Numbered from the stretch's first letter, positions 10,277 to 50,475 are shown. The stretch is DNA of 64,000 bases from Escherichia coli (GCF_017348835.2 NZ_CP071375.1); one strand, 5' to 3'. Notes: generated by a model from the letters alone, not told the origin. A program made the numbers and translations.

Positions 10277-10457
10277 TTAACTCTCGTTCAGCACACTAAA
10301 CATCCCGTCCCGCATCCCCTTAACTGCCTGTTTAACCTGATAAAGCTCCCTGCGCAGTTCCTGTACTTCGTTGTTATCCGCAAGCAGGATCAGACATCCC
10401 TCCGAGATCTTCACGGTAACGCCCGTGCCGATCTCAAATCCCGCTTCTCTCAGCCAT
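10277..10457 (-). pseudogene. SymE-like toxin gene, 5'-truncated by the adjacent rhs fragment boundary
   Basis: C-terminal 60 aa (AKWLREAGFEIGTGVTVKISEGCLILLADNNEVQELRRELYQVKQAVKGMRDGMFSVLNES) resemble SymE ([28 protein letters not shown]). Similarity ends where rhs core sequence starts at ~10458. Confidence 0.55.
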
Positions 10458-26828: not shown

Positions 26829-27716
26829 TCAGGCTGCCAGATCATTATTTCCGATGGAAGCATAATAAGCTTTTTCTGCTTCTGCCGGAGGAATATGGCC
26901 CAGCCTTTCCAGCAATCGTCGATTGTTATACCAGTCCACCCACGTTAGTGTGGCCAGTTCCACTTCTGTCCGGTTTTTCCAGCTCTTACGGTGTATTACC
27001 TCCGCTTTGTAAAGACCATTGATGCTCTCCGCCATCGCGTTGTCATACGAGTCGCCAGTACTCCCTGTTGATGCCAGTAATCCGGCTTCCTTAAGCCGCT
27101 GCGTGTAGGCCAGCGATACATACTGAGAACCTTTATCACTGTGATGGATTGTGCCGGACGGCCGACGGGCCCACAACGCCTGCTCCAGTGCATCCAGCAC
27201 GAATGTTGTTTCCATGGATGATGAGACCTGCCATCCCACGATGTATCCGGCGAACACATCAATGATGAACGCCACATAAACGAAGCCCTGCCATGTGCTT
27301 ACCCAGGTAAAATCAGCCACCCACAACTGGTCTGGACGTTCTGCCACGAACTGACGGTTTACGCGGTCGCATGCGGCAACGGCTTTCCGGCTGACGGTAG
27401 TGCGGACCTTTTTACCCCGGAGAACACCGGCAAGTCCCATAACTGCCATGAGACGTGCCACAGTGCATCTGGCCACTCTGATACCTTCCCGTAACAACTG
27501 ACGCCAGACTTTACGCACACCGTATACCTGGTGATTTTCATCGTATACGCGCTGTATCTCTTTCTTCAGCCAGTCATCGTGCTGCGCACGGGCACTGCGT
27601 TTATCCGGATGATGTCGCTGTTGCTGACAATGGTAATACGTTGACGGGGCAATATGCAGTTCGCTGCATACCGGTCCGACCCCGTACTGCTCACGCAGCT
27701 TATCCAGCAGTGGCAT
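26829..27716 (-). CDS. IS629-like transposase OrfB (DDE catalytic domain)
   Basis: 295 aa; start overlaps the orfA stop, consistent with IS3-type frameshifting. Confidence 0.85.
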   Translation of the reverse strand: MPLLDKLREQYGVGPVCSELHIAPSTYYHCQQQRHHPDKRSARAQHDDWLKKEIQRVYDENHQVYGVRKVWRQLLREGIRVARCTVARLMAVMGLAGVLRGKKVRTTVSRKAVAACDRVNRQFVAERPDQLWVADFTWVSTWQGFVYVAFIIDVFAGYIVGWQVSSSMETTFVLDALEQALWARRPSGTIHHSDKGSQYVSLAYTQRLKEAGLLASTGSTGDSYDNAMAESINGLYKAEVIHRKSWKNRTEVELATLTWVDWYNNRRLLERLGHIPPAEAEKAYYASIGNNDLAA

Positions 27717-28042
27717 TATTTTTTCCAGAGGCGGTCGAACTCCGCCTTCGCAAAATAAGCGGAAGCCTGGCGAAGGATATCGTTACTGCGGCGCAGTTCA
27801 CGATTTTCACGTTCCAGCTCTTTCAGACGCTGACGTTCAGCGGTGGTGAGTCCACCATCACCACTCCCGGTATCCCGCTCATGCTGGCGAACCCAGACAC
27901 GCAGAGTCTCCGGCGTACAGCCAATCTTTGGGGCAATGGAACAAATTGCCGCCCACTGTGAGTCATATTCATCCTGACTTTCCAGAACCATACGAATCGC
28001 CCGCTGACGGACTTCGGGGGAAAAACGAGTATTTTTAGTCAT
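27716..28042 (-). CDS. IS629-like transposase OrfA
   Basis: 108 aa, [26 protein letters not shown]..., helix-turn-helix. Confidence 0.85.
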
Positions 28043-28288
28043 CCTGTTTACCTCTTTCTCAGGGAGTTTAGTCTCCAGGATTTCCGGGGCGGTTCAGATT
28101 GCCTGGAAGCTGGAGCAACAGCAACAGGAAAATAGCGCAGTGCTGAAATCGCAGCGGCGAATGTTCCATCACCAGATTGAACGTGGCAACCCGCGACGAA
28201 CGTTTACAGGGATGGCTTTTATCGAAGGATAATGAAGGATGAAACTGCCGGAAGGCGATTAAACGCCATCCGGCAGCAAATCAAATAA

Positions 28289-30556: not shown

Positions 30557-31801
30557 ATGACACAGGCAAACCTGAGCGAAACCCTGTTCAAACCCCGCTT
30601 TAAACATCCTGAAACCTCGACGCTAGTCCGCCGCTTTAATCACGGCGCACAACCGCCTGTGCAGTCGGCCCTTGATGGTAAAACCATCCCTCACTGGTAT
30701 CGCATGATTAACCGTCTGATGTGGATCTGGCGCGGCATTGACCCACGTGAAATCCTCGACGTCCAGGCACGTATTGTGATGAGCGATGCCGAACGTACCG
30801 ACGATGATTTATACGATACGGTGATTGGCTACCGTGGCGGCAACTGGATTTATGAGTGGGCCACCCAGGCGATGGTGTGGCAACAAAAAGCCTGTGCGGA
30901 AGAAGATCCGCAACTCAGTGGGCGTCACTGGCTGCATGCGGCTACGTTGTACAACATTGCCGCCTATCCTCATCTGAAAGGAGATGACCTGGCCGAGCAA
31001 GCGCAGGCTTTGTCAAACCGCGCCTATGAAGAGGCCGCTCAGCGTCTACCGGGCACGATGCGGCAGATGGAGTTTACCGTACCCGGCGGTGCGCCCATCA
31101 CCGGCTTTTTGCATATGCCGAAAGGCGATGGCCCGTTCCCGACGGTATTAATGTGTGGTGGTCTGGATGCGATGCAGACGGACTATTACAGCCTGTATGA
31201 ACGTTATTTTGCGCCGCGCGGCATTGCGATGCTGACTATTGATATGCCGTCGGTGGGCTTTTCTTCAAAATGGAAGCTCACCCAGGACTCCAGCCTGTTG
31301 CATCAGCACGTCTTAAAGGCGCTGCCTAACGTACCGTGGGTGGATCACACTCGCGTCGCGGCCTTTGGTTTCCGTTTCGGCGCTAACGTTGCCGTGCGTC
31401 TGGCATACCTTGAATCGCCGCGTCTGAAAGCGGTTGCCTGTCTTGGTCCGGTAGTTCATACCCTGTTGAGTGATTTTAAGTGCCAGCAACAGGTGCCGGA
31501 AATGTATCTTGACGTTCTGGCGAGTCGTTTGGGGATGCATGATGCTTCCGACGAAGCGTTACGCGTGGAGCTGAATCGTTATTCATTAAAAGTGCAAGGA
31601 TTGCTGGGGCGTCGCTGCCCAACGCCAATGTTATCAGGCTACTGGAAGAACGATCCGTTCAGCCCGGAAGAGGACTCACGCTTAATCACCTCATCCTCTG
31701 CTGACGGTAAATTATTAGAGATCCCATTTAACCCGGTGTATCGGAATTTTGACAAAGGTCTTCAGGAAATCACGGACTGGATCGAAAAACGTTTGTGTTA
31801 A
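30557..31801 (+). CDS. frsA: Esterase FrsA
   Basis: 414-aa alpha/beta hydrolase matching FrsA. Confidence 0.9.
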
Positions 31802-32298: not shown

Positions 32299-33354
32299 TT
32301 AAAACTGATAGGTCATGCCAACCGCGACAATATCATCATTATTAATATTCAATTTGTTATCGCTATCCAGTTGGTTGATTTTATAATCAACAAACGCTGA
32401 CATATTTTTGTTGAAATAATATGTAGCCCCGACATCGATATAATTGACCAGATCTTCATCACCGATACCTTCAATATCTTTCCCTTTCGATAAGACATAA
32501 CCCAGCGATGGACGCAGACCAAAGTCAAACTGGTATTGAGCGACCGCTTCAAAGTTCTGTGTCTTATTGGCAAAGCCGCCAGTTATTGGCGTCATTTTGC
32601 GTGTTTCAGAATAAAAAGTTGCCAGATAAATATTATTGGCATCGTATTTCAGACCTGTTGCCCATGCTTCTGCACGCTTGCCTGTGCCACGGCTTTGCAG
32701 GTTCTGCTCGTTGGTGCGATCTGAGTTGGTATAGGCCCCACTAATGGCGAAATCGCTGCCGCCAAAGTCATATGTCAATGACGTGCCGAAGCCATCGCCG
32801 TTTTGCTTTTTAACATCGCGGTTTTCGTTTTTCCCTTGATATTGCAGGGTTAAGTTCAGGCCATCGATAACACCGAAGAAGTCGGTGTTCCGATACGTCG
32901 CCAGACCGCTGGCGCGTTTGGTCATAAAGTTGTCGGTCTGCGCCGAGGAGTCGCCACCAAATTCCGGGAACATATCGGTCCAGGCTTCCACGTCATACAA
33001 CGCGCCCAGGTTACGACCATAATCGAAAGAACCCAAATCTTTATATTTCAACCCGGCAAAAGCGAGACGCGTTTTTTGCTGTGCAGTATCACTCTCTGCT
33101 TTATTACCGGCAAACTCTGCTTCCCAACGACCATAACCAGTCAGTTGATCGTTAATTTGTGTTTCGCCTTTAAAACCAAAACGGATATAACTCTGGTCGC
33201 CATCTTTACTGTCGTTATCACTCATATAATGCATGGCTTTAACTTTGCCATAGACATCCAGTTTATTACCGTCTTTGTTATATATTTCTGCGGCCTGTAC
33301 GGATGCAGATGCCACAATGCCCATCACCACTAATGCCCGAGTACTCTTTTTCAT
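32299..33354 (-). CDS. phoE: Outer membrane phosphoporin PhoE
   Basis: Porin sequence ending ...VAVGMTYQF; start placed at [21 protein letters not shown]. Confidence 0.95.
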
Positions 33355-33389
33355 TTTCATTCCTGATTTTAATTAACGCGCGAATATTC

Positions 33390-33455
33390 AGCGGGAGAGT
33401 CCCGTTGAAAACAGGAAAGTTTTTAACCTGAGATTGTTAAAGATATATTACAGAT
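33390..33455 (-). promoter_or_regulatory. phoE promoter region with Pho-box-like repeats
   Basis: Reverse strand reads CTGTAATATATCTTTAACAATCTCAGG..., resembling PhoB-binding CTGTCATA-type repeats. Confidence 0.5.
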
Positions 33456-33641
33456 TAATAATATTCTTAAAATGTGGTAATTTATTAAATCTGTAATGAA
33501 AGCGTAAACAACTGCCGCTACGCTTGCTGATCCCGCGCAACAAAACGCCATGCTTTGCTCGCAGATGGTTGGCAACCGACGACAGTCCTGCTAAAACGTT
33601 CGTTTGATATCATTTTTCCTAAAATTGAATGGCAGAGAATC

Positions 33642-34745
33642 ATGAGTGACAGCCAGACGCTGGTGATAAAACTCGGCACCAGTGTGCTAACAGGCGGATC
33701 GCGCCGCCTGAACCGTGCCCATATCGTTGAACTTGTTCGCCAGTGCGCGCAGTTACATGCCGCCGGGCATCGGATTGTTATTGTGACGTCGGGCGCGATC
33801 GCCGCCGGACGTGAGCACCTGGGTTACCCGGAACTGCCAGCGACTATTGCCTCGAAACAACTGCTGGCGGCGGTAGGGCAGAGTCGACTGATTCAACTGT
33901 GGGAACAGCTGTTTTCGATTTATGGCATTCACGTCGGGCAGATGCTGCTGACTCGTGCTGATATGGAAGACCGTGAACGCTTCCTGAACGCCCGCGACAC
34001 CCTGCGAGCGTTGCTCGATAACAATATCGTTCCGGTAATCAATGAGAACGATGCTGTCGCTACGGCAGAGATTAAAGTCGGCGATAACGATAACCTTTCT
34101 GCACTGGCGGCGATTCTGGCGGGTGCCGATAAACTGTTGTTACTGACCGATCAAAAAGGTTTGTATACCGCTGACCCGCGCAGTAATCCGCAGGCAGAAT
34201 TGATAAAAGATGTTTACGGTATTGATGACGCACTGCGCGCGATTGCCGGTGACAGCGTTTCAGGCCTCGGAACTGGCGGCATGAGTACCAAATTGCAGGC
34301 CGCGGACGTGGCTTGCCGTGCGGGTATCGACACCATTATTGCCGCGGGCAGCAAGCCGGGCGTCATTGGTGATGTGATGGAAGGCATTTCCGTCGGTACG
34401 CTGTTCCATGCCCAGGCGACTCCGCTTGAAAACCGTAAACGCTGGATTTTCGGTGCGCCGCCTGCGGGTGAAATCACGGTAGATGAAGGGGCAACCGCCG
34501 CCATTCTTGAACGCGGCAGCTCCCTGTTGCCGAAAGGCATTAAAAGCGTGACTGGCAATTTCTCGCGTGGTGAAGTCATCCGCATTTGCAACCTCGAAGG
34601 CCGCGATATCGCCCACGGTGTCAGTCGTTATAACAGCGATGCATTACGCCGTATTGCCGGACACCACTCGCAAGAAATTGATGCAATACTGGGATATGAA
34701 TACGGCCCGGTTGCCGTTCACCGTGATGACATGATTACCCGTTAA
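33642..34745 (+). CDS. proB: Glutamate 5-kinase
   Basis: Start placed at [19 protein letters not shown] (track ORF starts earlier at 33555). Confidence 0.95.
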
Positions 34746-34756
34746 GGAGCAGGCTG

Positions 34757-36010
34757 ATGCTGGAACAAATGGGCATTGCCGCGAAGCAAGCCTCGTATAA
34801 ATTAGCGCAACTCTCCAGCCGCGAAAAAAATCGCGTGCTGGAAAAAATCGCCGATGAACTGGAAGCACAAAGCGAAATCATCCTCAACGCTAACGCCCAG
34901 GATGTTGCTGACGCGCGAGCCAATGGCCTTAGCGAAGCGATGCTTGACCGTCTGGCACTGACGCCCGCACGGCTGAAAGGCATTGCCGACGATGTACGTC
35001 AGGTGTGCAACCTCGCCGATCCGGTGGGGCAGGTAATCGATGGCGGCATACTGGACAGCGGCCTGCGTCTTGAGCGTCGTCGCGTACCGCTGGGGGTTAT
35101 TGGCGTGATTTATGAAGCGCGCCCGAACGTGACGGTTGATGTCGCTTCGCTGTGCCTGAAAACCGGTAACGCGGTGATCCTGCGCGGCGGCAAAGAAACC
35201 TGTCGCACTAACGCGGCAACGGTGGCGGTGATTCAGGACGCCCTGAAATCCTGTGGCTTACCGGCGGGTGCCGTGCAGGCAATTGATAATCCTGACCGTG
35301 CGCTGGTCAGTGAAATGCTGCGTATGGATAAATACATCGACATGCTGATCCCGCGCGGCGGGGCTGGTTTGCATAAACTGTGCCGCGAACAGTCGACGAT
35401 CCCGGTGATCACAGGTGGTATAGGCGTATGCCATATTTACGTTGATGAAAGTGCAGAGATCGCTGAAGCATTAAAAGTGATCGTCAACGCGAAAACTCAG
35501 CGTCCGAGCACATGTAATACGGTAGAAACGTTGCTGGTGAATAAAAACATCGCCGATAGCTTCCTGCCCGCATTAAGCAAACAAATGGCGGAAAGCGGCG
35601 TGACATTACACGCAGATGCAGCTGCGCTGACACAGTTGCAGGCAGGCCCCGCGAAGGTGGTGGCTGTTAAAGCGGAAGAGTATGACGATGAGTTTCTGTC
35701 ATTAGATTTGAACGTCAAAATCGTCAGCGATCTTGACGATGCCATCGCCCATATTCGTGAACACGGCACACAACACTCCGATGCGATCCTGACCCGCGAT
35801 ATGCGCAACGCCCAGCGTTTTGTTAACGAAGTGGATTCGTCCGCTGTTTACGTTAACGCCTCTACGCGTTTTACCGACGGCGGCCAGTTTGGACTGGGTG
35901 CGGAAGTGGCGGTAAGCACACAAAAACTCCACGCGCGTGGCCCAATGGGGCTGGAAGCACTGACCACTTACAAGTGGATCGGCATTGGTGATTACACCAT
36001 TCGTGCGTAA
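34757..36010 (+). CDS. proA: Gamma-glutamyl phosphate reductase
   Basis: 417-aa product. Confidence 0.95.
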
Positions 36011-36124
36011 ATAAAACCGGGTGATGCAAAAGTAGCCATTTGATTCACAAGGCCATTGACGCATCGCCCGGTTAGTTTTAACCTTGTCCACCGTGATTCA
36101 CGTTCGTGAACATGTCCTTTCAGG

Positions 36125-36200
36125 GCCGATATAGCTCAGTTGGTAGAGCAGCGCATTCGTAATGCGAAGGTCGTAGGTTCGACTCCTATTATCGGCACCA
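36125..36200 (+). tRNA. thrW: tRNA-Thr (CGU)
   Basis: GCCGATATAGCTCAGTTGGTAGAGCAGCGCATTCGTAATGCGAAGGTCGTAGGTTCGACTCCTATTATCGGCACCA; cloverleaf with CGT anticodon and encoded CCA. Confidence 0.95.
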
Positions 36201-36214
36201 TTAAAATCAATAAG

Positions 36215-37378
36215 TTACACATCATTAGTACCTTCCTTATTTTTTGACTGGGACAAATTTGGGACCGATGGGTTCAGGATCGAGTCTATTTGCCGTGCGT
36301 GTTCGGTAAGGTGATTAGGTGCAAGGTGAGCATATCGACGAACCATTTCGATAGACTCCCAGCCTCCCATTTCCTGTAAAACTGACAACGGGACTCCGGC
36401 TTGAACCAGCCAACTTGCCCAGGTGTGTCTCAAGTCGTGAAATCTGAAATCATCAATACCAGCCCGTCTCAGCGCCGCTTTCCAGGCTGTGTTTGCGTCA
36501 TACCGCATCTTCCTTACTGTTGGCGCTTTCGTTCCGTCTGGTTTGGTACAGCTTTCCTTGTACACAAATACCCAACGGTGATGATTCCCGATTTGTTTTT
36601 TCAAAACGCGACATGCAGTATCATTCAGCGCAACGCCAATTGCGCGGTTTGATTTACTCTCTTCCGGGTTTATCCATGCCACCCGGCGCTGCATGTCTAT
36701 TTGTTGCCATTCAAGGTTGATGATGTTCGAGCGTCTTAAGCCTGTTGCCAGTGCAAATTCAACAACAGACTTTAATGGCTCCGGACATTCATCAATCAGC
36801 CTTTGTGCTTCATGGGGCTCCAGCCAGCGGATCCGTTTATTCTTTGGTTGAGGCACTTTAATAATTGGTGCCTTATCCAGCATTTTCCATTCACGCTCTG
36901 CGGCTCTTAGTAGGGCCTTTATAAATGAAAGATGCGTAGCCTTCGTTGCAACGGACGCTGGTTTTGGCGTGTATTCTGGAACAGGTTTCCCTTTTTTTCT
37001 GCATGCTTCTGCCCTGAGTCTCCAGTTTTCCTCATGACGCCGGTTCGTCATTTTCTGCATTGCTGAATAAATTTTTGATTCAGTAATGTCTCTTAGTTGC
37101 ATTCCTGCGAAATGTTGAAGCCAGAATCCGATCCGGCTTTTGTCATCGTCCAGTGATTTTTTATGTGCTTTCTCTTCAAGCCACCTGACACACGCTTCCT
37201 CGAACGTTATATCAGGTATTTCACCAAGTTTGCTGACCCGCCATGCTTCAGCCTTTAGCTTGTCATGGAGTTCTGTCGCCTGCCTTTTGTCCTTTGTTCC
37301 AAGAGACTGTTTAAATCTTTTACCGTTCGGCAATGTGAAACTGGCGTACCATATTTCACCTCTGCGGAAGAGTGACAT
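36215..37378 (-). CDS. int: Phage integrase (tyrosine recombinase, P22 Int-like)
   Basis: 387 aa, [46 protein letters not shown]...; C-terminal HDLRHT...Y catalytic region. Confidence 0.9.
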
Positions 37379-37605
37379 TTTCTTTCCTCTGTTATGCCAT
37401 CACCCGCGCTCACCTGGACAGTATGCAGCGGAGACTGAAGAGCCGCAATGCAGGCTTGTCGTGTTGTGAGGTAAGGAGATTTATTCTTAGTGGGATCTTT
37501 GCGTGTTGCCTGAAGACGCCCTGTGCGTATCCAGTTAATGGCAGTCGGTCTGGATATCTTGAGAAAATGACAGGCCTCATCGAGTGTGAGGCTGTATGGC
37601 TCCAT
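37255..37605 (-). CDS. xis: Excisionase (Xis)
   Basis: 116 aa from the internal [37 protein letters not shown]...; 3' end overlaps the int start. Confidence 0.6.
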
Positions 37606-37910
37606 TATTTCACCTCTTGCTGTGACATTGTTGAAAAATGGATACCAGCTCGTTGCTGCCAGACGATCCAACCGAGAGTCATATCCCATGCCATGTATTC
37701 GTTATCGCCGTTTTTTGCTCTCCGACGATCTACTAAGTCACCGAAACGCTTTTCCATGAATAATTCATAAGCTTCGCGTTCATCTGGCTCTACTTCCAGA
37801 GATAGGAGTGCGATTTCATAAGCACGGCGCTCAATATCGTCTCGCACGTCAAGGCTGCTGATACGCTCTTTAATTTCTTTAATCAGTTCTTTGTCGGTAA
37901 AAGTGGTCAT
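37605..37910 (-). CDS. Phage early-region hypothetical protein (YfdT-like position)
   Basis: 101-aa ORF in operon-like overlap with neighbours. Confidence 0.4.
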   Translation of the reverse strand: MTTFTDKELIKEIKERISSLDVRDDIERRAYEIALLSLEVEPDEREAYELFMEKRFGDLVDRRRAKNGDNEYMAWDMTLGWIVWQQRAGIHFSTMSQQEVK

Positions 37911-38272
37911 TATGCTCCAGCCTCCGGTGCTTTTGGCATTACTGCCCAGTGAGTGATATTGACGTTTTCAAGGTCCCCAACCTGAAATGTCCACTGCCAT
38001 TCTCCGGTTTCTTTTTGTCCCCAGGTGTACCAGAGAGAACGCCAACCAATTAGCCAGCCTTCTCCGTTAGCATCGAATAACAAAACACTTTCATTTGCTG
38101 GTGGCAGTTCAGTTGACACTGGTATTACTTTGTTTTCCTGTGCTGCACATTTAGCTTCAAGCGCATCGAATTTACGCACCAGGTATTCAGCATCTGTTTC
38201 ATTTACTTTCAGATCTCGCGGTACACATCTCCCACGAAGAAACCCTTCCATTTCGAAAACATTCATGCGCAT
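37910..38272 (-). CDS. Phage early-region hypothetical protein (YfdS-like position)
   Basis: 120-aa ORF in operon-like overlap with neighbours; no family recognised. Confidence 0.4.
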   Translation of the reverse strand: MRMNVFEMEGFLRGRCVPRDLKVNETDAEYLVRKFDALEAKCAAQENKVIPVSTELPPANESVLLFDANGEGWLIGWRSLWYTWGQKETGEWQWTFQVGDLENVNITHWAVMPKAPEAGA

Positions 38273-38799
38273 TTGCGTAACTCCGATAACTCGTTAAAGC
38301 GTTCCATAAACATCCCGTAGGCATGGCCCGGTGCCAGTGGAATCACGTTGAACATCTCTGTTGCCGGGATACCTTCCAGTACAGGCCAGAAAGAGCCATC
38401 ATCAAGCCCGAGATCGCGGCGTTCGGTTGCCAGCATGATGAGATCGGCATATTTCACGGGCGTACTCATAACTGGGGGTAACCCGTATTTCTCACGGATT
38501 ACGGCGTCTATTTTTTCTTCCATTTGTTTATAGTCAGGAAGAAGGCGTTTCAGTGGTGCGGGAATGTCCTGGCAATTCGCTTCTGTTGCATCATGCATTA
38601 ACGCTTCAAAAGCAAATTCCTGCGGCACCAACTGGCTGCAAAGAACCGCATGTTGGGCGACGCTGTAGAAGTGCGAAAGATGACCGGCAAAGCGACAGAT
38701 ATTTGAAAGGGAAACCGCGATATCGTTAATATCGATGTCGTCTTTATTTATCCTGTCATAATAAAAATGCTTCCCGGAAAAAGTTTTAATAAATGACAT
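38263..38799 (-). CDS. HD-domain phosphohydrolase, YfdR-like
   Basis: MSFIKTFSGKHFYYDRINKDD...; H...HD motifs (FAGHLSHFYSVAQHAVL...MHDATEA). Confidence 0.65.
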   Translation of the reverse strand: MSFIKTFSGKHFYYDRINKDDIDINDIAVSLSNICRFAGHLSHFYSVAQHAVLCSQLVPQEFAFEALMHDATEANCQDIPAPLKRLLPDYKQMEEKIDAVIREKYGLPPVMSTPVKYADLIMLATERRDLGLDDGSFWPVLEGIPATEMFNVIPLAPGHAYGMFMERFNELSELRKCA

Positions 38800-38926
38800 T
38801 TTGTTCTCCACGTATATGCGCTGCACCGCGCTGAATTTTGGTTAAAGAAAACCCTCGCCATCAGGCGATTATTGAGTTAATTACGTTTCTATAAATGCCC
38901 CCGCAGGGGCATTTGCAGTAATGAAA

Positions 38927-39751
38927 TCAGGCGGTGAAAGTACCAATAAAGGTTTCTACTTTGCTGTCTTTGAATTTTTCAACAAGCAGATTACGAAATT
39001 CGTTAGCCATTTCTTCCTGTACTGCTTCCAGCTGAATAATGCGCAGAACCAGTACAGGGCGATCACCAGTGATAATGCTGAGGCGTAATTTAAACGGACG
39101 TTCTTTCAGGCCTTCAAACGGAACGCATTTAAACTCAAATGCTACTGGCATAATGTCTTTAGTTTTCGCTTCGACAGACTCCATCAGAGAGCGTTTGCCG
39201 CTGAAGTCATTGTCTTCAAAATCAGCGGTCTGGTTTGCTTCAATCGTGATTTTACGGACCGCCGCAGCCGCTTTTGTTGCCTGAATGGCGTCACCATTAG
39301 CATCAAAGCCCACAAGGTAGTCGGCCCAGTCTTCAATCCATTCTGCCAGTGACTTCTGGGAGTTACGCTCGCCGTTAACAGACAACAGGGCAGAGAACGG
39401 TGCTGTCTTTTTCAGTTTGAGAGTGGCGGTGTTATCTGCGTGACCTGGTTCATCAATAGTACCCAGGTTAAGCACACTGACGGCTCGCATATTATCAGCA
39501 TCGATAAAGCAGCGGGTGCCTTCATCTGCAAGATCTTTAGAATAACGGATAAAGTCATCGATGCTGGCAGTGGAAAGCGCACCACGGAAACGGAAGCGAT
39601 TTAAATTAAATTTTTCCAGATCATGAATGCGGAAATTCTCAGGCAATGCCACAGCATCGGCACCAATCTTACTGATAATTTCATTAACACTCTGAGCAGA
39701 AATAAGGGCATGGATTTGATTAATTTCGGTTGCGTCTAAGTTCTGAGACAT
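38927..39751 (-). CDS. YfdQ-like phage protein (DUF2303-type)
   Basis: 274-aa ORF adjacent to the HD-domain gene, as in P22-like early-left regions. Confidence 0.5.
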
Positions 39752-39816
39752 AATAAGTCCTCACTATATAAAGATATTCAGTGATGAGATAAATAATCAG
39801 TTAATTAAGAACGATA

Positions 39817-40197
39817 TTAATGACCTGCTGCGCGGAGTTTTCCGTCAGGTTCACCGGCAAGAGTCAGTAATTGTCCCTGGTCTTCCTGCAGAATAGTCAG
39901 GCGACCACCGCGATTGACATACATCGGTGTTTCGGTGGTGTCTTCTTCGGAAATTTTCCCGCGGTTAGTCGGGCGAACATATGAGAGTTTGTGTTTGATT
40001 TTCACACGGTTCTCATCAAATGGTTCGATTTCCAGGTTGAGCGAGACCTTACCTTTGGTTTTCGTGTTCATCACACCGGAAGCGACTTCACTGAGAACTG
40101 CGCCGATTTTGGTTTCAAATACGCCGCCGTCCAGCTCCCCGATAAATGCCTGCACATCAGTACTGCGTTCGCTAGCCATTTTGCTGCTCCTCATCAT
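39817..40197 (-). CDS. Phage hypothetical protein (YfdP-like position); start sits at the deletion junction
   Basis: 126-aa ORF whose 5' end coincides with the point where J-homologous sequence begins. Confidence 0.35.
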
Positions 40198-40199
40198 AT

Positions 40200-41874
40200 C
40201 GACCCTGCAAGGTCGGTTATCGCACGGCTGGAAGCAGAAGGCTGGTTAACGCGTAAGGCGCGTCGCCAGGGTAACGGCTGGGAGACGGCGACAGAGCTTG
40301 TTGAAGATACGCAGGCCATTCTCCGTTACGGTCGTAACGTCACGAAGATGGATGCCTTTGGCTGTACCAGCCGGGGGCAGGCGCACCGCGCCGGGCTGTG
40401 GCTGATTAAAACGGAACTACTGGAAACGCAGACCGTGGACTTCAGCGTGGGTGCGGAAGGGCTTCGCCATGTGCCGGGCGATGTCATTGAAATCTGCGAT
40501 GATGACTATGCGGGGATCAGCACCGGCGGGCGCGTGCTGGCGGTGAACAGCCAGACCCGGACGCTGACGCTCGACCGTGAAATCACGCTGCCATCCTCCG
40601 GTACCACGCTGATAAGCCTGGTTGACGGAAGTGGCAATCCGGTCAGCGTGGAGGTCCAGTCCGTCACCGACGGCGTGAAGGTAAAAGTGAGCCGTGTTCC
40701 TGACGGCGTTGCCGGATACAGCGTATGGGGGCTGAAGCTGCCGACGCTGCGCCAGCGCCTGTTCCGCTGCGTGAGTATCCGTGAGAACGACGACGGCACG
40801 TATGCCATCACCGCCGTGCAGCATGTACCGGAAAAAGAAGCCATCGTGGATAACGGGGCGCACTTTGACGGCGACCAGAGCGGCACGGTGAATGGTGTCA
40901 CGCCGCCAGCGGTGCAGCACCTGACCGCAGAAGTCACCGCAGACAGTGGGGAATACCAGGTGCTGGCGCGATGGGACACACCGAAGGTGGTGAAGGGCGT
41001 GAGCTTCCTGCTCCGTCTGACCGTAACAGCGGACGACGGCAGTGAGCGGCTGGTCAGCACGGCCCGGACGACGGAAACCACATACCGCTTCACGCAACTG
41101 GCGCTGGGGAACTACAGGCTGACAGTCCGGGCGGTAAATGCCCGGGGGCAGCAGGGTGATCCGGCGTCGGTATCGTTCCGGATTGCGATGATTAATCCTG
41201 CGAATGGCAACACAAAGCCGATGTTTGTTGGTCAGGGCGATCAGATATTCATGAACGACGTGTTCCTGAAACGCCTGACGGCTCCGACCATTACCAGTGG
41301 CGGTAATCCTCCGGCATTTTCCCTGACACCGGACGGGCGGCTGACGGCGAAAAATGCCGATATCAGCGGTAACGTGAATGCGAACTCCGGGGCGCTCAAC
41401 AACGTCACGATTAACGAGAACTGTCGGGTTCTGGGAAAATTGTCCGCCAACCAGATTGAAGGCGATCTCGTTAAAACAGTGGGCAAAGCTTTCCCCCGGG
41501 ACTCCCGTGCACCGGAACGGTGGCCATCAGGGACCATCACCGTCAGGGTTTATGACGATCAGCCGTTTGACCGGCAGATTGTTATTCCGGCGGTGGCATT
41601 CAGCGGCGCTAAACATGAGCGGGAGAATAACGATATTTATTCGTCATGCCGCCTGATAGTACGGAAAAACGGTGCTGAAATTTATAACCGTACCGCGCTG
41701 GATAATACGCTGATTTACAGTGGTGTTATTGATATGCCAGCTGGTCGCGGCCACATGACGCTGGAGTTTTCGGTGTCATCATGGCTGGTAAATGACTGGT
41801 ATCCCACAGCAAGTATCAGCGATTTGCTGGTTGTGGTGATGAAGAAAGCCACCGCAGGCATCAGTATCAGCTGA
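40200..41874 (+). pseudogene. J: Lambda J-like tail tip/host-specificity gene, 5'-truncated and with an internal deletion
   Basis: ...[94 protein letters not shown]... to the J C-terminus; only the C-terminal part present. Confidence 0.8.
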
Positions 41875-41941
41875 ATTTTATAACCCATATACGGGCGCCA
41901 GAAATGGCGCCTTTTTTATTGCAGAAAAGCGAGAGGTAATT

Positions 41942-42541
41942 ATGCGTAAAGTTTGTGCAGCCATTTTGTCCGCAGCCATCTGTCTGGCCGTATCCGGTGC
42001 GCCTGCATGGGCATCTGAGCAGCAGGCCACGCTGAGCGCAGGGTATCTTCATGCCCGTACGAACGCTTCCGGCAGCGATAATCTGAACGGGATTAACGTG
42101 AAATACCGTTATGAGTTTACGGACACGCTGGGGCTGATTACGTCATTCAGTTATGCCAACGCTGAAGATGAGCAAAAAACGCATTACAGCGATACCCGCT
42201 GGCATGAGGATTCCGTGCGTAATCGCTGGTTCAGCGTGATGGCGGGGCCGTCTGTGCGCGTGAATGAATGGTTCAGCGCGTATGCGATGGCGGGTATGGC
42301 TTACAGCCGTGTGTCGACTTTCTCCGGGGATTATCTCCGCGTAACTGACAACAAGGGGAAAAAGCACGATGTGCTGACCGGAAGTGATGACGGTCGCCAC
42401 AGCAACACGTCTCTGGCGTGGGGAGCTGGCGTGCAGTTTAACCCGACCGAATCCGTGGCCATTGATGTCGCTTATGAAGGCTCCGGCAGTGGTGACTGGC
42501 GCACTGACGGGTTCATCGTGGGTGTTGGTTATAAATTCTGA
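41942..42541 (+). CDS. lom: Lom-family outer membrane protein (Ail/Lom)
   Basis: 199 aa with signal peptide and C-terminal ...GFIVGVGYKF. Confidence 0.9.
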   Translation: MRKVCAAILSAAICLAVSGAPAWASEQQATLSAGYLHARTNASGSDNLNGINVKYRYEFTDTLGLITSFSYANAEDEQKTHYSDTRWHEDSVRNRWFSVMAGPSVRVNEWFSAYAMAGMAYSRVSTFSGDYLRVTDNKGKKHDVLTGSDDGRHSNTSLAWGAGVQFNPTESVAIDVAYEGSGSGDWRTDGFIVGVGYKF

Positions 42542-42599
42542 TTAGCCAGGTAACACAGTGTTATGACAGCCCGCCGGTTCAGGCGGGCTTTTTTGTGGG

Positions 42600-44417
42600 G
42601 TGAATATGGCAGTAAAAATTTCAGGTGTACTGAAAGACGGCACAGGAAAACCGGTACAGAACTGCACAATCCAGCTGAAAGCAAAACGTAACAGTACCAC
42701 GGTGGTGGTGAACACGCTGGCATCTGAAAATCCGGATGAAAAGGGGATAGTACAGCTCAGCAGTGCGACCAACAGCACTTCCGAGTCACTGGCGGCAACG
42801 CCAAAAGCCGTTAAGGCCGCGTATGACCTGGCTAACGGGAAATACACCGCACAGGATGCAACGACAGCACAGAAAGGGATAATCCAGCTAAGCAGCGCGA
42901 CCAACAGCACGTCTGAAACGCTGGCGGCAACGCCAAAGGCAGTAAAAGCAGCCAATGACAATGCTGAGAAACGTCTGCAGAAAGATCAGAACGGTGCGGA
43001 TATCCCTGGCAAAGACACCTTTACGAAAAATATTGGTGCCTGCCGTGCCTTCGGTGGGTCAGTAAGCACAACAACAGGAAACTGGACGACTGCACAGTTT
43101 ATCGAGTGGCTGGATTCTCAGGGAGCATTTAACCATCCATACTGGATGTGCAAGGGTTCCTGGTCTTATGGCAATAATAAAATCATTACTGATACTGGCT
43201 GCGGTAATATTCATCTCGCCGGAGCTGTCATTGAAGTAATGGGGATAAAGTCAGCGATGACGATCCGCATTACCACTCCGACCACATCCAGCGGTGGCGG
43301 AACAACCAACGCCCAGTTTACCTATATTAATCACGGAACAGATTATTCACCTGGCTGGCGAAGGGACTATAACTCCAGAAATAAGCCAACGGCATCAGAG
43401 ATCGGGGCGCTACCGTCAGGTGGAACAGCAGTATCATCAGTTAATCTGGCTTCAAAAGGTCGGGTAGCCGCGCTGACAGACAATACGCAGGGGGCAGCAG
43501 GTCTTGAGTTATACGAGGTGTATAACAACGGATATCCAACAGCGTATGGAAATATCATTCACCTGAAAGGGATGACAGCCGTTGGCGAAGGTGAGTTACT
43601 CATCGGCTGGAGTGGTACAAGTGGTGCTCATGCTCCGGCATTTATTCGTTCACGACGGGATACGACCGACGCAAACTGGTCGCCGTGGGCGCAGCTTTAC
43701 ACCTCGGCTCATCCTCCTGCAGAGTTTTATCCAGTCGGTGCACCAATCCCGTGGCCATCAGATACCGTTCCGTCTGGTTATGCCCTGATGCAGGGGCAGA
43801 CTTTTGACAAATCTGCTTACCCGAAACTTGCAGCCGCTTATCCGTCAGGCGTGATCCCTGATATGCGTGGCTGGACGATTAAGGGCAAGCCCGCCAGTGG
43901 TCGTGCCGTATTGTCTCAGGAACAGGATGGCATTAAATCGCATACCCACAGCGCCAGCGCATCCAGTACGGATTTGGGGACGAAAACCACATCGTCGTTT
44001 GATTACAGCACTAAATCCACGAATAACACTGGTGCGCATACCCATAGTTTAAGTGGCAGCACGAATGCAGCTGGTAATCACAGCCATAGAGATGGCCGTC
44101 GATTTAACCCCAGTGTTTTTAAAGATACTTATCAATATGGTTATACAAGCTCAGGTCAAAATACTTGGGGTGTACAAGGCTCAGTAGGTATGTCTACGGG
44201 GTGGTTAGCTAATACCAGTACAGATGGTAATCATAGCCACTCACTGTCCGGCACAGCAGCATCTGCAGGTGCACACGCGCATACTGTCGGTATTGGTGCT
44301 CATACGCACTCCGTTGCGATTGGTTCACATGGACACACCATCACCGTTAACGCTGCTGGTAACGCGGAAAACACCGTCAAAAACATCGCATTTAACTATA
44401 TTGTGAGGCTTGCATAA
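42600..44417 (+). CDS. stf: Side tail fibre protein Stf (shorter than lambda Stf)
   Basis: [28 protein letters not shown]... N-terminus and the conserved C-terminal His-rich repeats ([27 protein letters not shown]...[18 protein letters not shown]). Confidence 0.85.
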
Positions 44418-45001
44418 TGGCATTCAGAATGAGTGAACAACCACGGACCATAAAAATTTATAATCTGCTGGCCGGAACTAATGAATTTATTGGTGAAGGT
44501 GACGCATATATTCCGCCTCATACAGGTCTGCCAGCAAACAGTACCGATATTGCACCGCCAGATATTCCGGCTGGCTTTGTGGCTGTTTTCAACAGTGATG
44601 AGGCATCGTGGCATCTCGTTGAAGATCATCGGGGAAAAACCGTCTATGACGTGGCTTCCGGCGACGCGTTATTTATTTCTGAACTTGGCTCGTTACCGGA
44701 AAATGTCACCTGGTTATCGCCGGAAGGGGAATATCAGAAGTGGAACGGCACAGCCTGGGTGAAGGATACGGAAGCAGAAAAACTGTTCCGGATCCGGGAG
44801 GCGGAAGAAACAAAAAACAACCTGATGCAGGTAGCCAGTGAGCATATTGCGCCACTTCAGGATGCTGCAGATCTGGAAATCGCAACGGAGGAAGAAAACT
44901 CGTTGCTGGAAGCCTGGAAAAAGTATCGGGTGTTGCTGAACCGTGTTAATACAACAACTGCACCTGATATTGAGTGGCCTACGAACCCTGTCAGGGAGTA
45001 A
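44417..45001 (+). CDS. tfa: Tail fibre assembly protein Tfa
   Basis: 194-aa product; ATG overlaps the stf stop. Confidence 0.85.
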
Positions 45002-45362
45002 TCATTGGGATTATGCCGCAGAAACGTTGTATGCAATAACGTTTTGCGGTTGGCTGGTGAACTTCCGATAGTGCGGGTGTTGAATGATTTCCAGCTGCTA
45101 CCGATTTTACATATTTTTGCCTGAGAGGATTTGAACCGCCTCCACAGACTCTACATCACAGATAACCACTGTCACGAGGACTGTTAGTGCTGTGAGTTCA
45201 ACGGGGCGATGTACGCTACCTTTAATCAAGAGGGAGAGGTACGTTGCTAAGATGAGTTTATATTCATCAACTAAGTGCAGATCAGCGAATAACTAAAACT
45301 TGGCTGTCTGAACCGCCCCGGAAATCCTGGAGACTAAACTCCCTGAGAAAGAGGTAAACAGG

Positions 45363-45689
45363 ATGACTAAAAATACTCGTTTTTCCCCCGAAGTCCGTCA
45401 GCGGGCGATTCGTATGGTTCTGGAAAGTCAGGATGAATATGACTCACAGTGGGCGGCAATTTGTTCCATTGCCCCAAAGATTGGCTGTACGCCGGAGACT
45501 CTGCGTGTCTGGGTTCGCCAGCATGAGCGGGATACCGGGAGTGGTGATGGTGGACTCACCACCGCTGAACGTCAGCGTCTGAAAGAGCTGGAACGTGAAA
45601 ATCGTGAACTGCGCCGCAGTAACGATATCCTTCGCCAGGCTTCCGCTTATTTTGCGAAGGCGGAGTTCGACCGCCTCTGGAAAAAATAA
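45363..45689 (+). CDS. IS629-like transposase OrfA
   Basis: Product identical to the copy at 27716..28042. Confidence 0.85.
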
Positions 45690-46576
45690 TGCCACTGCTG
45701 GATAAGCTGCGTGAGCAGTACGGGGTCGGACCGGTATGCAGCGAACTGCATATTGCCCCGTCAACGTATTACCATTGTCAGCAACAGCGACATCATCCGG
45801 ATAAACGCAGTGCCCGTGCGCAGCACGATGACTGGCTGAAGAAAGAGATACAGCGCGTATACGATGAAAATCACCAGGTATACGGTGTGCGTAAAGTCTG
45901 GCGTCAGTTGTTACGGGAAGGTATCAGAGTGGCCAGATGCACTGTGGCACGTCTCATGGCAGTTATGGGACTTGCCGGTGTTCTCCGGGGTAAAAAGGTC
46001 CGCACTACCGTCAGCCGGAAAGCCGTTGCCGCATGCGACCGCGTAAACCGTCAGTTCGTGGCAGAACGTCCAGACCAGTTGTGGGTGGCTGATTTTACCT
46101 GGGTAAGCACATGGCAGGGCTTCGTTTATGTGGCGTTCATCATTGATGTGTTCGCCGGATACATCGTGGGATGGCAGGTCTCATCATCCATGGAAACAAC
46201 ATTCGTGCTGGATGCACTGGAGCAGGCGTTGTGGGCCCGTCGGCCGTCCGGCACAATCCATCACAGTGATAAAGGTTCTCAGTATGTATCGCTGGCCTAC
46301 ACGCAGCGGCTTAAGGAAGCCGGATTACTGGCATCAACAGGGAGTACTGGCGACTCGTATGACAACGCGATGGCGGAGAGCATCAATGGTCTTTACAAAG
46401 CGGAGGTAATACACCGTAAGAGCTGGAAAAACCGGACAGAAGTGGAACTGGCCACACTAACGTGGGTGGACTGGTATAACAATCGACGATTGCTGGAAAG
46501 GCTGGGCCATATTCCTCCGGCAGAAGCAGAAAAAGCTTATTATGCTTCCATCGGAAATAATGATCTGGCAGCCTGA
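45689..46576 (+). CDS. IS629-like transposase OrfB
   Basis: Product identical to the copy at 26829..27716. Confidence 0.85.
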   Translation: MPLLDKLREQYGVGPVCSELHIAPSTYYHCQQQRHHPDKRSARAQHDDWLKKEIQRVYDENHQVYGVRKVWRQLLREGIRVARCTVARLMAVMGLAGVLRGKKVRTTVSRKAVAACDRVNRQFVAERPDQLWVADFTWVSTWQGFVYVAFIIDVFAGYIVGWQVSSSMETTFVLDALEQALWARRPSGTIHHSDKGSQYVSLAYTQRLKEAGLLASTGSTGDSYDNAMAESINGLYKAEVIHRKSWKNRTEVELATLTWVDWYNNRRLLERLGHIPPAEAEKAYYASIGNNDLAA

Positions 46577-46618
46577 GTTCACAGATAAAACACTCTCCAG
46601 GAAACCCGGGGCGGTTCA

Positions 46619-48420
46619 TCTCCCGTCGCGCTATGCACGCCGACCTCCACAAAATGCCCGGCAAAGGTCGACTGCTGGTACTCCTTGCTCAGTGTTCCGA
46701 ATTCAATGCTCTCTTCCGCTGTCAGTCTGCCGCCTGCGGTGGCCTCATGTAGCGTGGCGCTTCGGGTACCGTTGGTAATCTTGCCGTCGGCAAACTGCGA
46801 CTGCTCAGGATCAAACCCGACTGCCGAGGCAATCATTTCGCGAAGCTTCACACAGGCGGCGTAAACGCCGGAGGTGGAGGTATTCGCGCCCCATTGTCCA
46901 CCAGAACCCGCAGAAACCGGGAAACTGGAATCGCCGAGGTGAACCGCAACCTGCTCCAGCGGTACGCCAAGCATTTCCGCTGCCGTCTGGGCCAGAATGG
47001 TGTAGCTGCCGGTGCCAATGTCGGTCATGTCCGTTTCCACGGTAACGGTGCCGTTTGGTTCGAGGTGAACCCGAGCCCCCGATTTTTCCAGCAGATTATT
47101 GCGAAAGCCCGCCGCGACGCCGTGGCCGACTAGCCACTCTCCGTCGCGTACCTGTCCAGGTGTGGCGTTGCGCTGCTTCCAGCCAAATTTATCCGCTCCG
47201 GCGCGCAAGCACTCGATAAGCTGACGGCGAGAGAAGCGGCGCGTCGGGTCGGCGGGGTCAACCTGAGTGTCATTCAGGATGCGAAACTCGACGGGATCGA
47301 TGCCCGCTTTTTCCGCCAGTTCGTCGATCGCGATTTCGAGCGCCATCAGACCGGGGGCTTCGCCGGGCGCACGCATGGCGTTCCCTTCCGGCAAATCAAG
47401 CGTGGCGAGCCGCAGGCCGGTATGACGGTTTGCCCCGGCGTAGAGTAATTCGCTTTGCTGTACCGCCGTTTCCGGCGTGCCGCCGGGCAGGTTTCCGGAC
47501 CAGCTTTCATGTGAGATAGCGGTGATTTTCCCGCTCTGGTCGGCACCGATACGCAAGTGCTGAAGGGTGGCGGGGCGGTGCGTGGTGTTATTGGGAATAG
47601 AGGGGCGGGGGAGCATCACTTTAACCGGACGTTTCACCGCTCGGGCGGCGAGGGCTGCCAGCAGCGCATCGCTTCTCAGGAAGAGCTTGCCGCCAAACCC
47701 TCCGCCGATATACGGGGAGATAATACGCACATTCTCCACGGGCACTTTCAGCGTTTTTGCCAGATCGGTGCGGCACCAGTCAATCATCTGATTTGAGGTC
47801 CAGAGAGTAAGCTTATTTCCATCCCAGACGGCCATCGAGGCATGCGGCTCCATCGCCATATGGCTCTGGTCCGGGGTCGTGTAGGTAGCATCAATCTTCA
47901 CCGCAGCGGAGGAGAAAGCCCCGTCAAAGTCACCGACGTTTTTGTCGGGCGTGCCTTCCGGCGGCTGATTGACGGCCTGTTTTTCGTCCGCCAGGGAGTA
48001 AGCTCCTTTATTACGGCGATAGTGCGCCTGCACCAGCGAGGCCGCCGCTCGCGCCTGTTCGAAGGTCTCGGCCACTACCAGCGCAATGGCCTGATGATAG
48101 TGCTCAATAGTGGGGCCGCCTAACAGCCTGGCGGTGTTTTTGTCGCCTTTGCCGAGTGCCCCGGCGTTACTGGCGGTAATGACAGCCAGTACGCCCGGCG
48201 CTTTTTGCGCGGCGTCCGTATCAAGGGCGGTGAGGCGTCCTTTGGCAATGGCGGAACCGACGATATAGCCATAGGCGGCGTTGGGGGATTCTTCATGCCA
48301 TTCGTAGGCGTAGCGTGCCGTGCCGGTAGTTTTCAGCGGTCCGTCGATGCGGTCATAGGGACGACCGACAACCTTCAGCTGATCGATCGGGTTTTCCCCT
48401 GCGGGTTTATCAAATTTCAT
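46619..48420 (-). pseudogene. paoC: Aldehyde oxidoreductase molybdopterin-binding subunit PaoC (YagR), 3'-truncated by the IS
   Basis: Track ORF 46579..48420 reads into the IS terminal repeat (C-terminus ...[11 protein letters not shown] is IS-encoded); native protein is ~730 aa, ~600 aa remain. Confidence 0.8.
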
Positions 48421-49373
48421 GCTTGTGCCCTCGCTTCAGCCAGTACGGAGGCAAGCGTTCGCTTCGCCAACAGGAGTTTAAAGGTGTTTTCAGCGGTGGG
48501 ATGGGCGCTGGCGAACAGCGCGTCATATACGGCCTGCGCCCCCTGGGATAGCTGAGCATCCGCAGCCTCAATGCGCCAGGGCTTATGTGCTACTCCGCCC
48601 AGCGCGACGCGCCCGCTGCCGTCAGGCTGAATAATCGCTGCGACCGATACCAGGGCAAAGGCGTAGGAGGCGCGATCGCGCACCTTACGGTAGATATGTT
48701 TTCCGCCGAGCGGCGGAGGTAACGTCACCGCAACGATAAGCTCACCGGGAAGCAGGGCGGTTTCAATGTGCGGCGTTTTCCCCGGTGGGTGATAAAAATC
48801 AGCCAGTGTGATACTGCGAGTCTTTCCCTCCGGCGTGATGGTTTCCACCACCGCATCCAGCAACCGCATTGCGACCGCCATATCGCTCGGATGGGTGGCA
48901 ATGCAGGCTTCGCTTACGCCTACCACCGCGTGCTGACGGCTAAAGCCTTCAAGCGCCGCGCAGCCGCTCCTGGGCAGGCGCTTATTGCAGGGCTGATTGG
49001 TGTCGTAAAAATAGGGGCAGCGCGTGCGCTGGAGCAGATTACCTGCGGTGGTTGCCTGATTGCGTAACTGACCAGACGCGCCAGCGAGCAGGGCGCGGGA
49101 GAGTACCGCGTAATCACGACGCACGCGCTCGTGAGCCGCCAGGTCGGTGTTCCGTACCAGTGCGCCGATGCGCAGCCCACCCGCGTCGGTCACTTCGATC
49201 TTATCGAGCCCGAGCCCGTTCACATCGATAAGGTGGGTGGGCGTTTCAATTTCCAGCTTCATCAGGTCCAGCAGATTGGTCCCGCCCGCGATAAATTTTG
49301 CGCCGGGTACGCGCTGAGCGCTAAGTGCCGCCTCGGCGGGGGTGTTCACTCGTTCATAGGTAAACGCCTTCAT
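48417..49373 (-). CDS. paoB: Aldehyde oxidoreductase FAD-binding subunit PaoB (YagS)
   Basis: 318-aa product with FAD-binding CO-dehydrogenase-type motifs. Confidence 0.85.
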
Positions 49374-50059
49374 GATTTTATCTCCCCCGCAGCGTCTTCA
49401 ATGGCGGCAAGGATGTTAGCGTATGCACCACAGCGACAGATGTTGCCGCTCATACGTTCACGGATCTCATCGGCAGTTGTTTCTGGAGCGGAAACCAAAT
49501 CGACCGTGACGTGACTGGGAATGCCGTCCTGAATCTCTTTTAGCACCGCTACTGATGAGCAAATTTGCCCGGAGGTGCAGTAGCCGCACTGGAAGCCATC
49601 ATGCTTGATAAAGGCCGCCTGCATGGGGTGAAGATTATCTGGTGAACCCAGGCCTTCAATGGTGGTGATCTCGGCCCCCTGATGCATGACTGCAAGCGTC
49701 AGGCAGGCATTAAGCCTGCGACCATTGACCAGCACGGTACAGGCTCCGCACTGTCCGTGATCGCAACCTTTCTTGGTACCGATCAAATGCAGATTTTCAC
49801 GCAAAGCGTCCAGTAGCGTGGTTCGGGTATCCACTTCAAGCTGCTCGGTTTTGCCGTTCACCTTAAGTGTCAGGGGCATTATCTCAGGCGCGGGTGTAGC
49901 TGCCGGAACGCTTGCCGCAAGCGTAGAATGAGGATAAACCACGGCGGTCGCCGCCGTTGCGGCGCTCACTTTAATCAGATCGCGACGGGTCAAACTAAAA
50001 TCGTGCGGCTCGTGCTTCCCAACCCGATTATCTTCGGGGTATTCGCCTTGGTTGCTCAT
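49370..50059 (-). CDS. paoA: Aldehyde oxidoreductase 2Fe-2S subunit PaoA (YagT), Tat-exported
   Basis: Twin-arginine motif LTRRDLIK; two Cys clusters ([18 protein letters not shown]...CRCGAY). Confidence 0.85.
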
Positions 50060-50475
50060 ACCAGGCCTCCGGTATTCTAAAGGGGAAAATAAGAGTGCGT
50101 TGCGAGAGTGCTGATGCTTTTTTAAACGTTAAGCATAGTCGGCGACAGCAGGAGGATTATTCTTAAAACGCGAATGCAGCTATGAGCCCGGCTAATAAAT
50201 TCATGTTCGCCGGGATGTTGATGATGATGGGAGCTGGTTTATTGCTTTAGTTGTACGATGCAAAACCGATAAGGAAACCTGTGATTGTCAGCTCTGCATC
50301 ACCCTGCAAATCTATGTCACTTCTAATATAAAAATAGGGAGAAATGATGGTGCTTATATTCATTGGCGATTAGGCAACCATCATGTTATACAAAACAATA
50401 CAGTTCTTTACATTTGCCTTGTTTTATGAATACTCCTAAAGAGGTGTATAACATAATGGTACAAGCAGGGTAGAT

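Follow-up and report, generated by a model that had tools for sequence, protein, structure and literature searches.

A prophage remnant at thrW of Escherichia coli, very probably left by deletions within a single lambdoid prophage

In this study we have examined a defective prophage located at thrW in a 64-kb stretch of Escherichia coli DNA (the whole stretch is referred to here as the window), which is 99.98% identical to strain PE164 from pig (NZ_CP114128.1). Our results indicate that window positions 36155-45308 are, very probably, the immobile 9.15-kb remnant of one lambdoid prophage of about 49 kb that integrated in thrW and lost its middle by deletions. Since complete prophages and phage genomes already carry both ends of the remnant, these ends would have been brought together by internal deletions, and because a relic of the replication gene O stands between the two retained blocks, at least two deletion events are needed. 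The remnant is thus a new but ordinary member of a well-known class, the cryptic lambdoid prophages. The initial annotation of this DNA had recognised a defective prophage at thrW, which our analysis confirms (int begins 15 bp downstream of the tRNA gene), and had interpreted it as a direct join of P22-type early genes to lambda-type tail-fibre genes, a view that we do not share.

Both ends of the remnant occur together in E. coli strain VTB97432v, whose apparently complete prophage at thrW has the order thrW-int-xis-yfdTSRQP-cI-cro-ymfL-O-...-Q-lysis-terminase-head-tail-J-lom-stf-tfa-cargo-attR-yagP'-paoD. Its attL and attR sites are exact 46-bp repeats of the 3' end of thrW, lying 49,022 bp apart. 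In the blast map, window positions 33000-40218 correspond to VTB97432v (VTB) positions 4127-11339, 40214-40278 to VTB 14726-14790 in gene O, 40273-41186 to VTB 42802-43715 in gene J, 43696-45310 to VTB 48490-50104 (99.0% identity), and 46619 onward to VTB 59428 onward, in paoC. The Tfa proteins of the two elements are identical. The phage genomes PhiR29_1, PhiR29_2 and Kati also match both blocks, and the map of the PhiR29_1 prophage reads int-yfdT-S-R-Q-P-cI-cro-ymfL-ymfM-O-...-Q-lysis-Nu1-A-...-J-lom-stf-tfa, so that the remnant is collinear with VTB97432v and with PhiR29_1 except for the deletions. These four elements share with the remnant the gene order at both ends and the tfa protein, and VTB97432v also shares the integration site; they differ from it in keeping the ~31 kb between yfdP and codon 408 of J and, in the case of VTB97432v, the attR end. 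PhiR29_1 probably uses a different att site, because its Int is just 73% identical in amino acid (aa) sequence. Other deletion derivatives are found at thrW in strains PT109, JSMCR1 and CUPS03, and the junction and overall layout of the window are confined to PE164 among 5,426 complete genomes.

The junction between the two blocks is compound. The initial annotation had the left block meeting a 5'-truncated J at about 40198; the two blocks do meet there, though not at a single point, as the left block runs to 40219, 39 bp past the yfdP start codon, and is followed by a piece of gene O (40220-40275) and by J from 40273. At junction 1 (40214-40219) the microhomology is CGGTTA versus CGGCTA, with TA exact, and ~3.4 kb are missing relative to VTB97432v. 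The relic of the lambdoid gene O (plus strand, ~55 bp, VTB 14732-14787) covers codons ~61-79, and window positions 40214-40278 are 95-97% identical to O of PhiR29_1 (7291-7355), to gp41 of SfIV (30618-30682) and to VTB 14726-14790. At junction 2 (40272-40275), from gene O to J, the microhomology is TAAC and ~28.0 kb are missing. The truncated J (J') begins at 40273, which equals codon 408 of lambda J, and J' residues 1-305 align to positions 408-711 of the NCBIfam profile lambda_TipJ (E=1e-298). The O relic is in frame with J'. A 627-codon open reading frame (ORF), 39991-41874, links antisense yfdP, the O relic and J' with no intervening stop, in the manner of ymfN, the O'-terminase chimera of prophage e14.

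Two further deletions lie inside the tail genes and were defined against alleles that are 99.5-99.8% identical in strain 200164. The first is an in-frame deletion of 657 bp in J, with its junction at 41178-41186 in a 9-bp repeat, CCGGATTGC; the 99.7%-identical J of strain 200164 spans 1,538 bp where that of the window spans 881 bp, and the shortened J is found only in PE164. The second is an in-frame 1,260-bp deletion in stf, near 42740, where the window maps to ...11398 and then to 12657... of the 200164 locus (L011) with 99% identity.

What is left at either end can be read gene by gene. The integration target, thrW (36125-36200, plus strand), sits downstream of proBA and is a tRNA-Thr(CGT) according to ARAGORN. 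Its last 46 bp (36155-36200) form the attL core and were supplied by the phage; the identity with SfIV attP starts at 36155, and the same 46 bp are present in VTB97432v. Seven intact ORFs follow on the minus strand. The gene int (36215-37378) encodes a tyrosine integrase of the P22/SfV family with 387 aa, assigned by the PHROG integrase families, and xis (37255-37605) an excisionase of 116 aa (phrog_2907, E=1e-50). They are followed by homologues of the K-12 genes yfdT (37605-37910; 96% aa identity to K-12 YfdT and 100% to SfIV), yfdS (37910-38272; 95.8%), yfdR (38263-38799; 97.2%), yfdQ (38927-39751; 97.8%, DUF2303) and yfdP (39817-40179; 99.2%), the last gene of the retained left block. YfdR is an HD-domain 5'-deoxynucleotidase that matches phrog_318, deoxyribonucleoside 5'-monophosphate phosphatase, with E=1e-108.

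On the plus strand, J' (40273-41874) encodes a tail-tip protein without codons 1-407 and without 219 internal codons. Next come an intact lom (41942-42541), for an outer-membrane protein of the Ail/Lom type with Ail/OmpX-type matches in NCBIfam, which has terminator-like hairpins on either side (41893-41912 and 42568-42589); stf (42606-44417), for the side tail fibre, with its internal deletion (PHROG tail-fibre families); and an intact tfa (44417-45001), for the tail-fibre assembly protein (phrog_105), 93.8% aa identical to lambda Tfa. The start of a tfa-distal cargo region (45002-45308, plus strand) is 100% identical to VTB97432v over its 307 bp and is cut by a copy of the insertion sequence (IS) IS629. 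This inventory is the one given by the initial annotation, whose end coordinate, 45308, proves to be exactly the last base preceding IS629, and which also correctly noted the absence of the immunity, replication, lysis and head genes and of most tail genes.

At the right end, the attachment site itself has been lost. The initial annotation had found no attR by eye downstream of tfa, and our search agrees, there being no attR copy in the 64-kb window, where not even the terminal 12 nt of thrW recur. In PT109 (L002 33920-33983) and in VTB97432v, attR is present at the far end of the prophage, before yagP'-paoD-paoC. In the window, this place is taken by IS629 (45309-46618, plus strand, 1,310 bp), an element of the IS3 family with orfA/orfB that is 99.5% identical to the IS629 annotated in phage BP-4795, with the inverted-repeat ends TGAACCGCCCCGG... 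and ...CCGGGGCGGTTCA. This copy has no target-site duplication, with GTC on one side and TCT on the other, which fits a deletion adjoining it. Beyond it stands paoC without its last 397 nt (46619-48420, minus strand); window position 46619 aligns with position 35844 of the PT109 locus (L002), where paoC extends over 35447-37645. In VTB97432v coordinates the right-end loss amounts to 9.3 kb, made up of cargo genes, attR, yagP', paoD and the end of paoC. With paoC, which codes for an aldehyde oxidoreductase subunit, shortened and both paoD and yagP' gone, the window strain probably has no active Pao enzyme.

A second, identical IS629 copy lies inverted in prfH (26787-28096, minus strand) and is flanked by a 3-bp duplication, GAT. 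The two 100%-identical inverted copies bracket pepD-gpt-frsA-crl-phoE-proBA-thrW together with the remnant, and in the RefSeq sequence of PE164 the 17.2-kb segment between them is inverted relative to the window; the lineage is therefore polymorphic for IS-mediated inversion. The cargo next to attR varies among the prophages at thrW. In PT109 (L002 29082-33536) it includes the anti-phage gene Avs2, and in VTB97432v (L009 20360-23902) a hypothetical protein of 1,180 aa and an AraC regulator. JSMCR1 (L012 17572-23086) and CUPS03 (L013 19470-23116) have at this end another element in tandem, which carries a fragment of an integrase and a hypothetical protein of 1,083 aa; JSMCR1 adds a P4-type primase fragment.

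We propose that the parent would have been a prophage with Int and Xis of the SfV/P22 family, an early-left operon yfdTSRQP, and head and tail genes of the lambda type, and that five losses would have led from it to the present remnant. One, of ~3.4 kb, from 39 bp upstream of yfdP to O codon ~60, would have removed pL, the repressor, cro, ymfL and the start of O. Another, of ~28 kb, from O codon ~79 to J codon 408, would have taken the replication, antitermination, lysis, packaging and head genes and most of the tail genes. The in-frame losses of 657 bp within J and of 1,260 bp within stf would be the third and the fourth, and an IS629-associated deletion of the right end, comprising the cargo, attR, yagP', paoD and the last 397 nt of paoC, the fifth. 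Since 2-9 bp of microhomology are present at the junctions of the first four, the sequence indicates that these could have arisen by illegitimate recombination. A common origin of the O-to-J junctions of the window and of PT109 was considered and rejected, as the breaks differ both in O (14787 versus 14760) and in J (nt 1221 versus nt 634).

Several points weigh against this scheme or leave it some latitude. A direct ancestor is lacking; identity to VTB97432v reaches only 95-97.5% in the left block and the initial part of J, and 85-89% from the 3' part of J through lom into the beginning of stf. The best match to the tail block (99.5-99.8%) is a prophage of strain 200164 that lies beside ydfJ, at another chromosomal site. 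Because the nearest tail block is found there and VTB97432v is more distant, the parent may itself have been a recombinant of co-resident prophages. The first two losses could be one complex event, the right-end loss may have come about either by an IS629 adjacent deletion or by recombination between two direct IS629 copies, and the five losses may have come in any order. Moreover, the statements on expression made below come solely from a consensus scan.

What could the remnant still do? It would be unable to excise, although Int, Xis and attL are intact, because attR is missing. It is also predicted to be unable to replicate, to lyse its host or to make particles; between 40219 and 40273 there are no repressor, cro, Q, lysis, terminase, head or tail-shaft genes, and of O only ~55 bp. 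The yfd operon appears to be left without its native promoter region. A promoter consensus scan detected no site within 1.5 kb upstream of yfdP; it gave one 9/12 match at 41729-41702, and the total was no higher than in shuffled sequences. The gene most likely to be still expressed would be lom, which keeps its own terminator-flanked unit.

The initial annotation had also raised the possibility that the yfd genes are retained under selection, on the strength of a report that their homologues in the K-12 prophage CPS-53 inhibit replication initiation when overexpressed. This report exists: multicopy yfdQRST inhibits initiation at oriC, and the K-12 YfdR protein binds DnaA (Noguchi & Katayama 2016, PMC4776307). 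From the 97% identity with the K-12 proteins, the YfdR of the window may also bind DnaA and its yfdQRST genes may also inhibit initiation. It could be added to the deletion history that yfdPQRST, and perhaps lom, persist under selection because they benefit the host, for instance by damping DnaA-dependent initiation or by improving stress tolerance, the latter in line with the lower survival of hydrogen peroxide after deletion of yfdS (PMC3105296). In agreement with this, all seven ORFs of the left block are intact, with ratios of non-synonymous to synonymous substitution rates (dN/dS) of 0.00-0.31 relative to other copies, in functional phages as well as in remnants; several independent deletion derivatives at thrW (PT109, JSMCR1 and CUPS03) have kept the left block, which is present at no less than 80% of its length, from int to yfdP, in 557 of 5,426 genomes; and the deletions of the window and of K-12 CPS-53 stop 39 and 19 bp, respectively, upstream of the yfdP ATG.

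Other points speak against it, and we consider selection on these genes unlikely. The dN/dS values are also low relative to functional phages, which points to constraint at the phage level. The window junction, being found in 1 of 5,426 genomes, is probably young, too young for decay to show, which also means that selection acting on these genes cannot be demonstrated. By geometry alone, any internal deletion leaves both ends of a prophage in place, and deletions extending leftward would reach thrW and proBA. In addition, yfdS and yfdT are entirely, and yfdR is largely, missing from strain K_EC180, the remnant has been deprived of the native promoter region with no strong promoter-like site upstream, and deletion of yfdQRST in K-12 has no replication-initiation phenotype (PMC4776307).

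As to where the two blocks came from, each gene was aligned with P22, lambda, SfIV, PhiR29_1 and K-12 CPS-53. The label "P22-type" given to the early genes in the initial annotation suits int and xis, whose products are 89.7% and 87% aa identical, respectively, to those of P22, although SfIV Int (99.7%; both Int alignments and that with P22 Xis are full length) and SfIV Xis (100%) are closer. It does not suit the yfd genes, which have no homologue in P22 (tblastn, E<=1e-3), whereas YfdT/S/R/Q/P are 98.5-100% aa identical to SfIV and 96-99% to CPS-53. Over all its 3,997 bp, the left block has 98.7-98.8% DNA identity to SfIV and SfV. In the right block, J' is 98% aa identical to residues 408-712 of lambda J and the N-terminus of Stf is conserved with lambda; the C-terminal, receptor-binding part of J has just 59% aa identity to lambda, and Lom has 43% to its lambda counterpart and 89-92% to the Lom proteins of prophages. 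Lom and the J C-terminus are thus alleles other than those of lambda.

The close relationship of the left block to SfIV and SfV, which have Mu-like tails, would also be expected if an SfV-like myovirus and, to its right, a lambda-tailed phage had integrated in tandem at thrW and had then been fused by a deletion across their boundary. The tail block being closest to a prophage at another chromosomal site, beside ydfJ, fits this idea too, and JSMCR1 and CUPS03 do have tandem elements at thrW. We nevertheless regard a tandem origin as very improbable. VTB97432v, PT109, JSMCR1 and CUPS03 all combine the left block with lambda-type J-lom-stf; VTB97432v and PT109 show one attL and one attR only (blast with the thrW region, over the stretch examined); the O relic is collinear with a single prophage of this type; and the window contains no internal att copy. 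As for the mosaic of the initial annotation, in which recombination joined a P22-type early-left region directly to a lambda-type tail-fibre region, the identities of Int (89.7%) and Xis (87%) to P22 and the lambda-type J', stf and tfa are in its favour, but the yfd genes are absent from P22, the left block is of the SfIV/SfV type (98.8%), full prophages and phages (VTB97432v, PhiR29_1/2 and Kati) already carry both modules, and the O relic lies between the blocks as expected of deletions in one collinear genome, so that it is scarcely credible.

The remnant resembles, in different parts, several known elements. With SfIV and SfV it shares int-xis-yfdT-S-R-Q-P, the attP core with the same 46 bp of thrW, and the type of O. 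SfIV differs in having a sheathed tail with baseplate genes and, beside int, gtrA/B with a type-specific glucosyltransferase gene, and it gave no match to J', lom or stf; the window, unlike SfV and SfIV, has no contractile-tail genes and has J, stf and tfa of the lambda type instead. No gtr genes are annotated in the PE164 remnant, where the attR side, their expected place, is deleted, nor in the thrW prophages of VTB97432v and PT109. Lambda has J-lom-stf-tfa in the same order, but it lacks yfd genes and differs in int and att. In Salmonella, P22 integrates at thrW, and its record marks only the attP core beside int; P22 resembles the remnant in Int and Xis only, has no homologues of J, lom, stf or tfa, and its genes eaC, eaA, eaD, eaE, erf and abc and the tailspike gp9 are absent from the window.

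One parallel in K-12 is CPS-53 (KpLE1), which has the yfdP-Q-R-S-T block in the same order (96-99% aa identity) and a near-identical first deletion, running from 19 bp upstream of yfdP to O at VTB 14785/6; in the window these limits are 39 bp and VTB 14732. CPS-53 differs in that it lies at argW with IntS and TorI and contains gtr genes, the 3' part of O, yfdN and yfdM, and also in that it keeps both att sites and can be excised upon TorI overproduction (PMC3105296). The window element, by comparison, is at thrW, has Int and Xis of the P22/SfV type, keeps J'-lom-stf-tfa and has no attR. Both of these independent deletions (window 40180-40219; CPS-53, L006 9588-9604) spare yfdP, which could reflect another hot spot of breakage or selective pressure to keep yfdP whole. 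The other K-12 parallel is ymfN of e14, in which the 5' part of an O gene of the same type is likewise fused in frame to a late gene, with a break at VTB 14784, within 3 nt of the O-to-J break of the window. In e14, which lies at icd and keeps its immunity region, the partner is terminase, not J.

The position of these breaks raises a further possibility. We mapped the end-points in gene O of junctions at other loci onto the VTB numbering. Breaks fall after 14731 in window junction 1 and in GPEC484-624 (partner an inverted lom), after ~14735 in MB98 (partner terminase), after 14760 in PT109 (J nt 634), after 14784 in K-12 e14 (ymfN/oweE; terminase), after ~14785-88 in K_EC180 (tfa) and after 14787 in window junction 2 (J nt 1221), and in K-12 CPS-53 (yfdO/oweS; partner the region upstream of yfdP) the retained piece starts at 14785/6. 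Thus, eight independent junctions from the window and at least six other defective prophages, which are deletions and one inversion with eight different partners, all lie within 57 bp (VTB 14731-14787). Their microhomologies are 2-9 bp long, and every junction fits a break directly after GGCTA, GGTTA or GGGTA. K-12 e14 and CPS-53 carry exactly complementary pieces of O. Iteron-like 15-bp repeats, which probably mark the phage origin, begin ~70 bp downstream, and both breaks of the window lie 70-130 bp upstream of them.

Two explanations for this clustering were tried and rejected. The positions are not mosaic boundaries of viable phages, since the O region is unbroken in 15 of 16 deposited phage genomes and none of them breaks there; the remaining one, mEp460_4F5, matches as far as a mosaic boundary at the start of O, outside this stretch. 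A DNA hairpin does not account for them either, as the fold is no better than that of shuffled sequence (z = -0.38). Our literature search found no paper describing a breakpoint common to the O fragments of e14 and CPS-53. We tentatively suggest, giving it a little less than an even chance, that a sequence- or origin-dependent hot spot of DNA breakage drives decay across this large family of prophages. Because the sample is small and was partly ascertained via gene O itself, we treat the hot spot as a lead.

Other observations concern the yfd proteins and their surroundings. YfdQ matches PDB entry 9o7m, "YfdQ protein" (E=3.6e-45), whose 36 chains suggest a large YfdQ assembly; our literature search found no paper on this structure. 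NCBIfam was uninformative for the yfd proteins, with a weak 5'-deoxynucleotidase match for YfdR only, and the PADLOC defence models gave no matches among ten proteins of the remnant. The small ORF that directly precedes yfdP on its upstream side carries a frameshift in the annotation of four unrelated strains (L002 19195-19505, L003 18409-18719, L010 20376-20687 and L015 4005-4315), and SfIV gp34 is annotated as a single longer ORF (26860-27540) across the same stretch and yfdP.

What does this remnant mean for the biology of E. coli prophages? Taken alone, the finding has little weight, as it adds to the cryptic lambdoid prophages another example, found in a single E. coli lineage, and deletions within one ordinary prophage account for its odd gene adjacency. 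It offers a worked example of prophage decay, in which microhomology deletions and the IS-linked loss of attR would have fixed the remnant in the chromosome and damaged the paoC gene of the host. Should the hot spot in gene O prove real, it would account in part for the similar way in which many E. coli prophages have lost their replication and lytic genes.

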